Source of the DNA: Escherichia phage PhiR46_1
Sequence record: PV340565.1
Strand: one strand, 5' to 3'
Length of the DNA stretch: 46,290 nucleotides
Each line of letters opens with the position of its first letter. Position 1 is the first letter of the stretch. Positions 3,005-12,939 of this stretch are shown here, piece after piece. Position numbers and translations under genes: made by a program. The notes below the pieces were generated by a model. That model had not been told where the DNA came from. It made no database searches and was given only the letters and a program-made list of their open reading frames with translations.

Positions 3005-3024
3005 CCCCGTGACCAGTCACGGGG
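3005..3024. promoter_or_regulatory. 20-bp perfect palindrome CCCCGTGAC-CA-GTCACGGGG (GTGAC-N2-GTCAC family, copy 1)
   Basis: Seen in sequence, followed on the plus strand by a T-rich tract. Related copies at 7688-7701 and 12928-12939. Confidence 0.4.
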
Positions 3025-3085
3025 ACAGGTGTTTTTATAGTTTGCTTGAACGAGTGATCAGAAGTTGATCGTTAATCAAAGGCCA

Positions 3086-3373
3086 TTACGGATTAAGAGA
3101 GTGGAAATACCTAACTAACTTACCGGCATCATCACATTTTTCTTTATCTTCTTCCTTAACATAGCCGCGACAGAAGGCTGAATAAAATTTCGCATTTTCA
3201 GAAGCAAAAGCAGCCGTCGAAAGGAGCAGTTCTTTGCATGATTCTTTTGATGCAGCATCGGGATTATTTTTACATGCAAGCTCCGCTGATGAGTTAATAA
3301 CAGAAATGCTATCTTCCTGGGCATAAACCGCAGCAGAAAAGGCAAAACATAAAACCAAAATAAAACTCTTCAC
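3086..3373 (-). CDS. Small secreted (periplasmic) cysteine-containing protein, about 95 aa, probable GTG start
   Basis: The ORF track gives 3086..3397. A GTG at 3373 with AGGAG 6 nt upstream yields M/VKSFILVLCFAFSAAVYA-QEDS, a classic signal peptide. The mature part has 4 Cys. Confidence 0.55.
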   Translation of the reverse strand: MKSFILVLCFAFSAAVYAQEDSISVINSSAELACKNNPDAASKESCKELLLSTAAFASENAKFYSAFCRGYVKEEDKEKCDDAGKLVRYFHSLNP

Positions 3374-3400
3374 TTTATCTCCTGTAACAGTTATCACAAC

Positions 3401-3808
3401 TCAATCAACTTTTTTAGCATCAGCCATACGCTTCAACCAGTAATCAACAATCGGCTGCTCATCCACAGAATGTTTACCAGGTATAACTCGCCAGCTATCT
3501 TGCGAAAATCTGCCGTACTTACGCGGGAATAGGCCTTTCTTTATCTCCCGCCATGTACTAGGAAAACCATCCACAAAAGTACCAATTAACAGGAGAGGGA
3601 CAAAAATCAGAGCTACAAACCATCGTGCAAGAAAGTGTTCAACAACAACATTTTCACCGTTGTAGTAATACGCATACGCATCCAATATGCGAATTTTCCT
3701 TACCTTAAAAATAGCCTTATGCTGAGAACGACTTAACTTGATACGAATGTATCCCTTATCCAAAGGGGATTCGTATTTGTATGATTGAAAAGCCATTTTT
3801 AACCCCAC
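3401..3808 (-). CDS. Hypothetical single-pass membrane protein (135 aa)
   Basis: ORF track; hydrophobic segment WFVALIFVPLLLIGTFV. Confidence 0.5.
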   Translation of the reverse strand: MGLKMAFQSYKYESPLDKGYIRIKLSRSQHKAIFKVRKIRILDAYAYYYNGENVVVEHFLARWFVALIFVPLLLIGTFVDGFPSTWREIKKGLFPRKYGRFSQDSWRVIPGKHSVDEQPIVDYWLKRMADAKKVD

Positions 3809-4125
3809 TCACCATCAGCAAACAAAGCGTTATACTCTGACAATGGTAGACGGTTGCCCTCGATGTAGAGATTCAGTTCATACTTCGTCTCCGGGTTTTC
3901 CTTGTCGGCTCGTTCCCAACGCTCAGCAGCCTTACGCGCCAATAATTCCACTGCTTTCAGGTAATCCTCCGTACGGAACCAGCCAAAGATAAGGCCACGA
4001 TCTGTTACAGCCCAGGCGACCTTTTTTTCTTCCTCCTGGATAGCCTTAATGCGTCGATCGCATTCATCCCGGCAGAACTGCAGCTGACGGTAATCAAGTT
4101 TGTCCAAAAATGCAGTAGTAGACAT
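3799..4125 (-). CDS. Hypothetical protein (108 aa)
   Basis: ORF track; follows repA on the same strand. Confidence 0.45.
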   Translation of the reverse strand: MSTTAFLDKLDYRQLQFCRDECDRRIKAIQEEEKKVAWAVTDRGLIFGWFRTEDYLKAVELLARKAAERWERADKENPETKYELNLYIEGNRLPLSEYNALFADGEWG

Positions 4126-4313
4126 ATTTTTACTCCCCGTTCACCGAAAAATCACGATAGAAGCGTTTCCACATACGATAAGTCTGCGCGAGTTGTTCAC
4201 CACGAAACATCGCCTTCCTGGCCTTCATGTTTTCCTTGTGAGACTTTCGATCTATGAACCAAAACCATTGCTGGAACACACAAAGCAAGAGACACAAAGA
4301 TAATATCCACTGA

Positions 4314-10624: not shown

Positions 10625-11224
10625 GTGACTAATCAGATTATTTACGACAGGAAACGGTCTGATGTAATGATTGACCTTGAAACAATGGGTACTAACACAT
10701 GTGCTCCAATTGTTTCTATCGGGGCAGTGTTTTTTTCTCCAGAAGGTGAGGAATTAGGTCCTACTTTTTATGTGCCAGTGAATCTCAGAAGCTCGATGTT
10801 GAATGGTGGTGTCGCCGATGGTGATACCATTTTATGGTGGTTGAAACAGAGCAAGGAAGCCAGAGCCGCAATTTGTACTAATGATGCCCTTGATATTAAG
10901 GATGCACTTTTTGAATTATCACACTTTATTACTTGCCATGCATGTAATTTAAAAAAATTGAAAGTATGGGGAAATGGAGCAACATTCGACAATGTAATTT
11001 TACGCGGTGCTTATGAGCGCGTTGGCTTAGCCTGTCCGTGGGAATATTTTAATGATCAGGATGTTCGAACAATCGTTAATCTTGGTCAGTTTATTGGTTT
11101 CAATCCTAAAAAAGATATGCCATTTGATGGTGAACGACACAATGCCCTGGCTGATGCTATTCATCAGGCTAAGTATGTATCCGCAATTTTCTCCCGTCTT
11201 GTAAAAGGGCAAGGAGAATCGTAA
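10625..11224 (+). CDS. DEDD-family 3'-5' exonuclease-like protein
   Basis: MIDLETMGT motif (Exo I-like D-x-E). Size and features are typical of phage-encoded DnaQ-like exonucleases. The annotated codon may be an upstream alternative start. Confidence 0.6.
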   Translation: MTNQIIYDRKRSDVMIDLETMGTNTCAPIVSIGAVFFSPEGEELGPTFYVPVNLRSSMLNGGVADGDTILWWLKQSKEARAAICTNDALDIKDALFELSHFITCHACNLKKLKVWGNGATFDNVILRGAYERVGLACPWEYFNDQDVRTIVNLGQFIGFNPKKDMPFDGERHNALADAIHQAKYVSAIFSRLVKGQGES

Positions 11225-11643
11225 TGGCAAAGGCTTTTACACCAGAACAGAGGGAAGAACTGAATAAACAAATTGTGGAACTCGTGCGCCTGAATGGACG
11301 AGGAACGGTTAGGCAACTTGCGGATGAAACTGGTATTAGCCGGTGTGCTGTTAGTCGTTTATCAAGAGAGCTTGCTGCCAGTGGTGATTTGTATATCTCT
11401 GGCTCCGGGATATTTCTGTCTGCACAAGCACGCAAGGACTGGCAAAACGCCCGTAAAAAACTATCAAGAGTAAAGCCGAAGACATCGGTAGTGGTTGATC
11501 CAGACCTTATCTGGTCATTACCTGACGGAGAAATACGTCGTTACGACAGGCGCTTGAACATGATTTGTCACGATTGCCGGAAAAGTGAAGTTATGCAGCG
11601 TGTGCTGGCTTTTTATCAGGGAAATTTACAGGAGGTGGCGTAG
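11224..11643 (+). CDS. Hypothetical protein with N-terminal HTH-like segment
   Basis: ORF track; RQLADETGISRCAVSRLSREL is HTH-like. Confidence 0.45.
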   Translation: MAKAFTPEQREELNKQIVELVRLNGRGTVRQLADETGISRCAVSRLSRELAASGDLYISGSGIFLSAQARKDWQNARKKLSRVKPKTSVVVDPDLIWSLPDGEIRRYDRRLNMICHDCRKSEVMQRVLAFYQGNLQEVA

Positions 11644-11933
11644 TGAATATCGACACCACGATAACGATCGATACGGCCCTAAATATCGGTCTGGCACTTC
11701 TCGGTTGGTTTTACATCATGTTCAGTGCGGGGAAGTGGGCGGCCTCTGTTTTTCTAAAGCAGTGGGGAAAGCACCGCAAACAGGAAAGACGCCAGAAAGT
11801 GTTAGAGGCGTTCTATGACGCATTTGAACTTAGCCGCATTGAGCCAGGCACAACAGCCAAGATAGCGACAAAAGGCGACCTGATGATAGTGATGTTCCGA
11901 CAGGAGAGAGCAGATAAAGGGGAATCAGCATGA
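11643..11933 (+). CDS. Hypothetical small membrane protein
   Basis: ORF track; hydrophobic N-terminus LNIGLALLGWFYIMF. Confidence 0.4.
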   Translation: MNIDTTITIDTALNIGLALLGWFYIMFSAGKWAASVFLKQWGKHRKQERRQKVLEAFYDAFELSRIEPGTTAKIATKGDLMIVMFRQERADKGESA

Positions 11934-12589
11934 AATTTTCCAAATTTTCTGAGTTGGTGAATCGTATTTTGTCCAACAACCACAGCCATCGTCGCGATAT
12001 GGATGTAACAATCGTTATTCATTCGCCTGGCAGCATTGGTTCAACACCCTCAGTTGAGGTTCAGTCAATTCACGCTGGTTTTGATTGGGATTCCGGGAAA
12101 GTGCTGATTTTCCCAGCACAGCCACTGACCACGCTAACACCAGAACAGATTACTGATATTACTGATAGTGTGCGCAAAGGTCAGTCCTGGCACGCATATC
12201 AGGAATACAAGAAGCATAAAGAGCAGTTGGAAAAATTGTCGATTGAACTGGATGCTGCAAAACAGCGCGTAGCAGAACTGGAAGCCAAACCTGTAAGCCA
12301 AACTTACAAGTTAACTTTTGAGCAATGGCTGGAACAGCAGCATGACAAAATTGATGTTGATTGTGGATGTGTAAGTACTGAAATGTTTATGCACTGGATA
12401 AGGGTCGCGTATGAGGCTGGCAACTCTCCGGTAACTCCGGATGGTCATGTTCAGTTTTCTGTTTCACTTCCTGCAGCGTTTGGTGGAGATAAATATTTTA
12501 TTGATGGTGTATTTCAACCTTTGAGATATGAGCGTGACTGTGAAAGGGCGGTTGTGGCCGCTGGCGGTGTAGTTAGTTGGGTTAAGTAA
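11930..12589 (+). CDS. Hypothetical protein (219 aa)
   Basis: ORF track; overlaps neighbouring genes by 4 nt, which suggests an operon. Confidence 0.5.
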   Translation: MKFSKFSELVNRILSNNHSHRRDMDVTIVIHSPGSIGSTPSVEVQSIHAGFDWDSGKVLIFPAQPLTTLTPEQITDITDSVRKGQSWHAYQEYKKHKEQLEKLSIELDAAKQRVAELEAKPVSQTYKLTFEQWLEQQHDKIDVDCGCVSTEMFMHWIRVAYEAGNSPVTPDGHVQFSVSLPAAFGGDKYFIDGVFQPLRYERDCERAVVAAGGVVSWVK

Positions 12590-12604
12590 TTTTCAGGAGG
12601 ATTT

Positions 12605-12931
12605 ATGGCGCTGACACCGGCAGAACGGCAAAGGAGACGCAGGGAACGGTTGAAGAAGGAAGGCACATCAAGACGGGACTGGATTCTAGAACCTGACGAG
12701 TTACGTATGTTGGGGGAAATTTGTGTATTGCGTAGACCAGGGCGAGTTCCATATTCGGAGAACGAAGTCATTGGTTTGCTGATCAGGAAAAACTATAAGG
12801 AGCTGCAGAAGCAGCTATCTACTACTTGCCCGCGATGTGGTCAAAAAATGCCTGTTTCAGAATGCATTTTTGATGGCGAAGGGTCATGCCACCTTACAAC
12901 CACGAGGCTGAAACTTGCGCTCAAAGTGTGA
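12605..12931 (+). CDS. Hypothetical protein (108 aa), basic N-terminus, C-x-x-C pair
   Basis: ORF track; GGAGG ribosome-binding site. Confidence 0.45.
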   Translation: MALTPAERQRRRRERLKKEGTSRRDWILEPDELRMLGEICVLRRPGRVPYSENEVIGLLIRKNYKELQKQLSTTCPRCGQKMPVSECIFDGEGSCHLTTTRLKLALKV

Positions 12932-12939
12932 CTGGTCAC
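12928..12939. promoter_or_regulatory. GTGACTGGTCAC palindrome (GTGAC-N2-GTCAC family, copy 3)
   Basis: Overlaps the stop codon of the upstream ORF and sits just before the ribosome-binding site of the next gene. Confidence 0.35.

Follow-up and report, generated by a model that had tools for sequence, protein, structure and literature searches.

Three dispersed GTGAC-N2-GTCAC palindromes in the N15-like phage-plasmid PhiR46_1 and their putative phage-encoded reader

The 46,290-nucleotide sequence of Escherichia phage PhiR46_1 (PV340565.1; the whole stretch is hereafter the window) is that of an N15-like linear phage-plasmid (Ravinvirus), with the gene order of N15: the protelomerase, the leftward antirepressor, small open reading frame (ORF) and repA genes, cB, cro, Q and the rightward early genes. 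N15 itself serves as the model for linear phage-plasmids, and linear cloning vectors are built on it. We analyzed three palindromes of the form GTGAC-N2-GTCAC that are dispersed over this genome, at positions 3009-3020, 7689-7700 and 12928-12939, and a 108-amino acid gene, ORF 12605-12931 (+), the stop codon of which lies within the third palindrome and the product of which is, on comparative evidence, their probable reader.

Three conserved palindromes in the PhiR46_1 genome

The window contains three exact matches to GTGACNNGTCAC, with GTGACCAGTCAC at site 1 and GTGACTGGTCAC at sites 2 and 3, and an initial annotation of this DNA had placed them exactly, including the perfect 20-mer at 3005-3024 and the copy at 7688-7701. 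Dinucleotide-preserving shuffles of the window yield an expected count of 0.01, and none of 100 shuffles held three or more copies. No one-mismatch copies of the motif were found in the window, and two-mismatch copies (22 of the 25 matches listed, against about 15 matches expected) barely exceed chance.

Site 1 (3005..3024) consists of the core at 3009-3020 extended to the perfect 20-bp palindrome CCCCGTGACCAGTCACGGGG; the palindrome is intergenic: 62 bp separate it from the stop codon of the minus-strand ORF 3086-3397 that precedes it, and the predicted antirepressor-operon promoter has its -35 hexamer 24 bp downstream of it, so that the site centre falls at about -66.5. Site 2 (7688..7701; CGTGACTGGTCACG) falls within repA (4314-8309, minus strand), where its minus-strand reading is Val-Thr-Ser-His. 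Site 3 (12927..12940; TGTGACTGGTCACG) includes the TGA stop codon (12929-12931) of ORF 12605-12931 and adjoins the GGAGG ribosome-binding site of ORF 12950-13192.

The three positions are conserved in relatives. In N15, which like phiKO2 is about 76% identical to the window in parts, the same 12-mer occurs at 28550 (after gene 33), 33237 (gene 37, repA) and 39269 (the stop codon of gene 46), and phiKO2 carries it at all three homologous positions. A comparison of N15-like contigs from IMG/VR, counted as distinct sequence contexts, shows the 12-mer and the G that follows it to be unchanged in 21 contexts at site 2 and in 25 at site 3, with neighboring third-codon positions varying freely around both. 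At site 1 the arms are unchanged in 10 distinct contexts, two of which have the centre CC, and no insertions or deletions separate the site from the -35 hexamer among these 10 relatives; its 4-bp extension is not conserved and is absent from phiKO2 and N15. Site 2 corresponds to a variable loop of RepA, and since the 12-mer is invariant within it, the DNA sequence, rather than the protein, appears to be conserved there. The RepA of PY54, a telomere phage with the same overall plan, has an insertion at this loop and no site, and PY54 as a whole lacks GTGAC palindromes with spacers of 1, 2 or 3.

A phage gene that accompanies the motif

Searches with tblastn using the product of ORF 12605-12931, which belongs to the family of N15 gp46, phiKO2 gp45 and epsilon15 gp49 (hereafter the gp46 family), retrieved homologues of 30-42% identity in phages otherwise unrelated to N15, including the podoviruses epsilon15 and phiV10, the Pantoea myovirus AH07, Pectobacterium phage ZF40, a P2-like Yersinia phage and many Vibrio phages; PY54 yielded none. 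In epsilon15, phiV10, AH07, ZF40 and Vibrio phage K303, the gp46 homologue is the sole thing in common with PhiR46_1. Epsilon15 contains exactly three GTGACATGTCAC sites, one of which overlaps the TGA stop codon of its homologue gp49. The stretch of AH07 examined holds two sites, one overlapping the homologue's stop codon, and that of ZF40 three, one beginning 2 bp after it; K303 has three sites, and phiV10 has one, plus a gene ending in GTGA at the end of the record.

The epsilon15 sites (2142, 19517 and 39612 in our locus L006) all mark the ends of transcription units. Those at 19517 and 39612 each follow a stop codon and precede an annotated intrinsic terminator, and the one at 2142 adjoins a terminator-like hairpin, as read in the homologous sequence of relatives.

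The association extends to a broader sample. Among 80 IMG/VR loci found through their gp46-family protein, 77 contain the motif, with 146 sites in 1.42 Mb, whereas spacers of 0, 1, 3, 4 and 5 nt account for 0, 3, 1, 0 and 1 sites in the same sequence and everted or altered control palindromes for 0-2. Distant homologues are accompanied by an exact site in 53 of 79 loci and by a site with at most one mismatch in all 79; these 165 sites, against 35 in shuffled sequence, usually come right after the stop codon of the gene. No conserved partner gene was found beside the distant homologues, both the upstream and the downstream neighbors of which are highly variable. In the reverse direction, a scan of viral contigs for the 14-mer CGTGACATGTCACG recovered the gene in 19 of 80 short stretches, a large enrichment for a family that numbers 218 members at E <= 0.001 in a full HMMER search of 1.84 billion representative proteins. 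Gene and site move as a pair among unrelated phages whose hosts are Enterobacterales, Vibrio and Aeromonas.

We then drew up a phylogenetic profile of every ORF in the window against seven unrelated motif-bearing phages (epsilon15, AH07, ZF40, K303, the loci L057 and L238, and the Yersinia P2-like phage) and PY54. ORF 12605-12931, which the initial annotation had overlooked, is the only ORF of the window present in all seven motif-bearing phages and absent from PY54, and its product is the only protein that tracks the motif. The sites are thus non-random and conserved, their spacing is strictly specific, and the motif co-occurs with the gene in unrelated phages that share no other protein with the window, so that the identity of ORF 12605-12931 as the binder is well supported by comparative sequence analysis.

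The protein matches phrog_536 over nearly its whole length (E = 4.7e-32; residues 2-107 on profile positions 3-114 of 115), an uncharacterised family labelled as a phage 'transcriptional regulator'. Pfam, NCBIfam and PADLOC hold no family for it, a profile search of Protein Data Bank sequences with the gp46 family returned chance matches only, and the family members seen are either unnamed or labelled just 'hypothetical' or 'transcriptional regulator'. Structural modelling predicts an N-terminal basic helix (AERQRRRRERLKK), a ribbon-helix-helix (RHH)-like core and a C-terminal segment with four cysteines (Cys4: C75, C78, C87 and C95), the last modelled with low confidence and with no predicted coiled coil. 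The gene usually closes the conserved part of the early operon and often stands shortly before the small terminase gene. A full-text literature search with the 12-mers GTGACTGGTCAC, GTGACCAGTCAC and GTGACATGTCAC and six variants returned unrelated eukaryotic primer sequences only, and the searchable literature, a scope that leaves the N15 and phiKO2 genome and origin papers outside, contains no description of the motif or of a function of the protein. The pairing gives a protein family that had not been characterised a precisely defined DNA motif.

The pairing has a variant in Aeromonas. An alignment search of a genome collection returned five loci, four from Aeromonas and one from a Cetobacterium metagenome-assembled genome; a search of the collection with a single Aeromonas-type protein gave no match. 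In the Aeromonas P2-like prophage variant, two imperfect copies, GTGTCCGGTCAC and GTGACCGGACAC, are found about 25 nt after the stop codon. In L235, L238, L240, L249 and others, they form an inverted-order pair, with GTGTCCGGTCAC and GTGACCGGACAC separated by 12-20 nt and located some 25-110 nt past the gp46-like stop codon. In L238, a TACCAT lies 17 nt after the GTGACC arm, a plausible promoter of the form GTGACC-17-TACCAT, and a similar TACCAT follows the sites in several other loci; the paired arrangement looks like a regulated promoter.

A different arrangement is found in L112 (IMGVR_UViG_3300020576_005973; 4650-5150), in which a dense array of GTGAC/GTCAC half-sites with two full sites lies around the 3' end of an ORF. 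In the product of this ORF the basic motif of the gp46 N-terminus, AERQRLHRQKK, recurs, and the array could be iteron-like and read by a related basic helix.

Surroundings of the sites and their possible functions

The central dinucleotide of the sites varies by clade, being TG/CA in the N15-like phages, AT in the epsilon15-like group and others elsewhere, and within a genome the centres are concordant in 67 of 80 multi-site loci against a shuffled mean of 21, a figure inflated by the relatedness among loci. A centre that is clade-specific and concordant within genomes fits co-evolution with a phage-encoded reader. The arms, on the other hand, never vary and never covary, sites occur in either orientation, and the 12-mer by itself folds weakly as RNA (-2.9 kcal/mol, z = -0.3, a stem of 4-5 bp); invariant arms, a variable centre, either orientation and weak RNA hairpins together point to duplex DNA rather than RNA as the functional form. 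Such a combination of features is the signature of a dimeric duplex-DNA reader that co-evolves with its sites. With regard to placement, 33% of the sites lie on or at most 30 nt after stop codons, against 4% of random positions, and sites are depleted inside genes (46% against 83% of random positions); many sites occupy the interval from a stop codon to the following ribosome-binding site.

We consider it reasonably probable that the ORF 12605-12931 protein recognises the three palindromes as its cognate DNA sites, with transcription control within operons as the preferred function; both the direct binding and the function are what we infer from these patterns. The small protein would bind as a dimer, with an antiparallel beta-ribbon and a flanking basic helix from each subunit reading two GTGAC arms placed exactly 2 bp apart. 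Gene and site would form a portable pair, with one site on or just past the stop codon of the gene and another one to three scattered over the rest of that phage genome, for the most part in short gaps that follow stop codons. Made late in the early operon, the protein would act at the DNA level as a repressor or roadblock: at site 3 on read-through into gp47, at site 2 within repA, and at site 1 at the junction of the repA operon and the antirepressor promoter. Three conserved sites, in repA, at the antirepressor promoter and in the early operon, together with an identifiable binder, would amount to an undescribed control layer in an N15-type phage.

The surroundings of sites 1 and 3 offer possible targets. 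The predicted sigma-70 promoter next to site 1 (2955..2984, minus strand; TTGACG-18-TAAAGT) would serve the isrK/C4-icd-antirepressor operon, and its predicted start fits the 5' end of an Rfam isrK match (2873-2948, minus strand, 53 bits), which is followed in tandem by a match to C4 antisense RNA (2759-2846, minus strand, 82 bits). This isrK/C4 segment is the RNA leader of the antirepressor operon, in a tandem arrangement resembling the P1/Gifsy layout of antirepressor control, and a protein at site 1 might act on this promoter or insulate it. Downstream of site 3, ORF 12950-13192 (+) encodes an 80-amino acid protein of the N15 gp47 family and has a ribosome-binding site that touches the palindrome, which makes it a possible target of a roadblock there.

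Several other features lie in or near these regions. To the right of site 1, the block 3025-3069 is near-invariant in 10 distinct N15-like phages and reads TATAGT on the plus strand (3036-3041), with the site-1 palindrome at the -35 position; it could be an activator-dependent antisense promoter or the site of another protein. The small ORF at 13275-13478 (+) has a secondary PHROG match to the anti-repressor family phrog_10889 (E = 6e-8) and a faint match to AriA in PADLOC (E = 0.003). In the tail-gene region, a single GCGTGAC-C-GTCACGC palindrome (29589-29603) has the same arms with a 1-nt spacer, and is probably a chance occurrence, given that related loci show no enrichment of N1 sites. The window begins and ends (1-22 and 46269-46290) with the 22-bp perfect palindrome CCATTATACGCGCGTATAATGG, of the telO type, so that the telomere resolution site bounds the record. 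Escherichia coli plasmids of about 46 kb are nearly identical to the window, and an 11.5-kb query stretch of it matches Escherichia phage YDC107_1 at 96.7% identity across 91% of its length. The GenBank record of the latter (L003; CP025712.1) holds the telN-to-repA arm twice, inverted, by appearance a head-to-head replication or assembly form, and this inverted duplication is the reason why it shows five sites rather than three.

A number of observations weigh against the reading of the palindromes as sites of transcription control by the gp46-family protein. Across 186 distinct sites, no -10-like element was found at a fixed distance, and the idea that a site arm might itself serve as a -35 element (GTGACA resembling TTGACA) was rejected because no -10 element lies at 16-18 bp in this set. 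The notion of sites as markers just upstream of terminators holds for epsilon15 and not generally (7.6% against 4.4%), and with neither a fixed promoter element nor general terminators, the transcriptional role is a guess. For autoregulation, too, it would be unusual to have the site at the 3' end of the gene that encodes the regulator. As for the pairing itself, 3 of the 80 homologue loci have no exact site, and in the reverse scan the 14-mer also occurs in short stretches that lack the gene; some of these gene-less matches are coding coincidences, such as the copy in L169, which encodes Cys-Val-Thr-Cys-His of a zinc-finger protein, and L156 and L163, like L169, hold motif clusters with no gene, the sequence in L156 being closely similar to that of L169 in the opposite orientation. 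Lastly, the hosts so far (Enterobacterales, Vibrio and Aeromonas) belong to lineages that bear MatP, a protein whose site has the same arms, and this leaves room for a host factor.

The main alternative, to which we assign a minor yet real share of the probability, keeps the same binder and gives it an architectural job, akin to that of MatP/matS or of a dispersed centromere: the gp46-family protein would mark or bridge two to four dispersed sites and so organise, pair or tether phage DNA. The two to three widely spaced sites per genome, placed wherever a 12-mer can be accommodated, after stop codons and in variable coding loops among other places, would suit this role, as would the tight linkage of one site to the gene, which recalls that of parS to parB, and the lack of a promoter element at a fixed distance. 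The half-sites, moreover, are those of matS, the E. coli consensus of which is GTGACATTGTCAC (PMC8669397), the predicted succession of basic helix and strand resembles the alpha4/beta1 head of MatP, and the Cys4 tail could mediate higher-order contacts. However, most carriers are integrating or lytic-cycle phages that have no need of partition, the protein has neither a coiled-coil tetramerisation tail nor homology to MatP or ParB, and the paired sites at the predicted promoter of the Aeromonas P2-like prophages look regulatory.

We regard it as improbable that a conserved host protein, such as MatP, SlmA or another, binds the sites and that the gp46 gene is a linked passenger. The arms are identical to those of the matS consensus and invariant across very different phages, and all hosts seen are from MatP-bearing lineages, an overlap for which the narrow range of the family may be explanation enough. 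A host reader fits poorly, however, with a spacer that is always 2 (N3 occurs once in the 1.42 Mb of homologue loci) and with a clade-specific central dinucleotide; PY54, an N15-type phage-plasmid of an enterobacterial host, has neither the site nor a gp46 homologue, and the tight link to the stop codon of the gene in unrelated phages would go unexplained. The SlmA consensus, GTGAGTACTCAC, differs from the phage sites at the inner arm positions.

Distinctly improbable, too, is a role of the elements as RNA, in which a short hairpin near a stop codon or ribosome-binding site, possibly bound by the arginine-rich gp46 N-terminus, would control translation, processing or termination. In its favor, many sites fall in the gap that separates a stop codon from the ribosome-binding site after it, all three epsilon15 sites are just upstream of intrinsic terminators, the gp46 N-terminus resembles arginine-rich RNA-binding peptides, and site 1 can form an 8-bp hairpin of -14.2 kcal/mol (z = -3.3). 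The strong hairpin of site 1 is, however, confined to some phages, the site-1 extension is missing from phiKO2 and N15, and the 12-mer alone gives the weak stem described above; the 'loop' varies between invariant arms that show no covariation, site 2 runs opposite to its mRNA, and neither the 46% of sites located in genes nor the modest terminator proximity fits such a role.

The least tenable proposal, very improbable in our estimation, is that of the initial annotation, in which the binder would be RepA or a small winged-helix protein (ORFs 11224, 12950 or 14520), or the sites would be origin elements. Site 2 does lie in repA, the reported location of the N15 origin (PMC2847241), and site 3 comes immediately before ORF 12950; weak winged-helix matches exist for ORFs 11224 and 14520, and ORF 12950 has a weak dimerisation-domain match that was taken as winged-helix-like, but the phylogenetic profile removes all four candidates and leaves ORF 12605-12931: RepA, ORF 12950 and ORF 14520 have homologues in the site-less PY54 and are absent from the seven motif-bearing phages, and ORF 11224 (DUF977) is absent from PY54 and from all seven. 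By this profile, the proposal is largely refuted, and ORF 12950-13192 in particular appears not to be the binder. An origin-associated role is likewise unsupported, because the motif occurs in epsilon15 and in P2-like, Mu-tail-like and lambdoid phages with differing replication systems.

Relation to known DNA-binding systems

Within the N15-like phages themselves, the GTGAC palindromes invite comparison with two other sets of sites. Those of SopB type (TGCGACC-NN-GGTCGCA) number five in the window (7932-7947, 10374-10391, 14751-14772, 17792-17811 and 18012-18031, the last two about 220 bp apart) and four in N15 and in phiKO2. They are likewise dispersed perfect palindromes of the same genome, some in genes and one in repA, 244 bp from site 2, but they have another sequence and spacing and are read by a ParB-family protein, and PY54 has its own SopB version, with nine sites of the TGGGACC type, and no GTGAC sites. 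A test of the GTGAC sites against the 16-bp pattern TG(C/G)GACC-NN-GGTC(G/C)CA failed, as both arms and register differ. A single TTATAGC-NN-GCTATAA-type operator for CB/Cro was found in the window (9174-9189), and its sequence is also unlike that of the GTGAC sites. The view of the initial annotation that the palindromes differ from both sets and imply a third DNA-binding specificity, separate from those of CB/Cro and SopB, is thus supported.

With the RHH proteins (CopG/Arc/MetJ), the gp46 family shares a small size, a predicted helix-helix core after a short would-be beta-strand segment, and a target, a 12-bp inverted repeat, that is sized for one dimer; the best structural matches of the gp46 model are RHH antitoxins and regulators. 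It differs from them in matching no Pfam RHH family (none at E <= 10), in its extra N-terminal basic helix and C-terminal Cys4 segment, and in having sites at its own stop codon and dispersed over the genome rather than clustered at its own promoter. Weak N-terminal matches also connect the homologues of AH07 (residues 9-47) and ZF40 (residues 11-47) to E. coli YbfE ('LexA regulated protein', NCBIfam PRK11675), although PRK11675 scores of 12-17 bits fall far below the cut-off of 62, and YbfE and the IncFII CopB/RepA2 proteins have no Cys4 tail. Reading the sequences by eye suggests that YbfE and CopB/RepA2 share the pattern of a basic stretch followed by RHH; to our knowledge, none of them binds GTGAC-N2-GTCAC.

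Late activators of the Ogr/Delta/Mu C group resemble the gp46 family in being small Cys4 phage proteins encoded distally in the early operon, often just before structural genes, and the gp46-family sites of Aeromonas P2-like prophages overlap a predicted promoter. There is, however, no sequence similarity between the two groups, and gp46 sites keep no general fixed distance to promoters, with many of them inside operons or genes.

A further parallel is with MatP and matS. The half-sites, GTGAC and GTCAC, are identical, and in both systems they form single sites, few and dispersed, and no operator arrays. According to PMC8669397, helix alpha4 and strand beta1 are the elements with which MatP reads matS, and the gp46 model has its basic helix and strand region in that same order. 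The differences are nonetheless substantial. The spacer of matS is 3 (a 13-bp GTGAC-N3-GTCAC), whereas that of the phage sites is always 2, with a single N3 against 146 N2 sites in the 1.42 Mb; the gp46 protein is predicted to lack the rest of the four-helix bundle and to have a zinc ribbon instead of a coiled-coil tail; and it is phage-encoded, with its sites on phage DNA. No homology to MatP was detected with hhalign (probability 0.15; the MatP sequences obtained were near-identical ones from E. coli), nor any match to PF06303 or PF17414. Given the constant spacer of 2, the lack of N3 sites and the lack of homology, gp46 resembles MatP in target and layout and is not a member of its family. 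The presence of matS half-sites at a different spacing raises the question of convergence or of interplay with the host Ter organiser. An unlikely variant of the architectural role is that the gp46 family constitutes a phage-borne 'mini-MatP', a stripped-down helix-plus-RHH head that would read matS-like arms at a private 2-bp spacing and use its sites as anchors or bridges. Were this so, the sites would organise or position replicating phage DNA, or interfere with its handling by the host MatP/MukBEF system, and gene and site would constitute a mobile cassette among phages of MatP-bearing bacteria.

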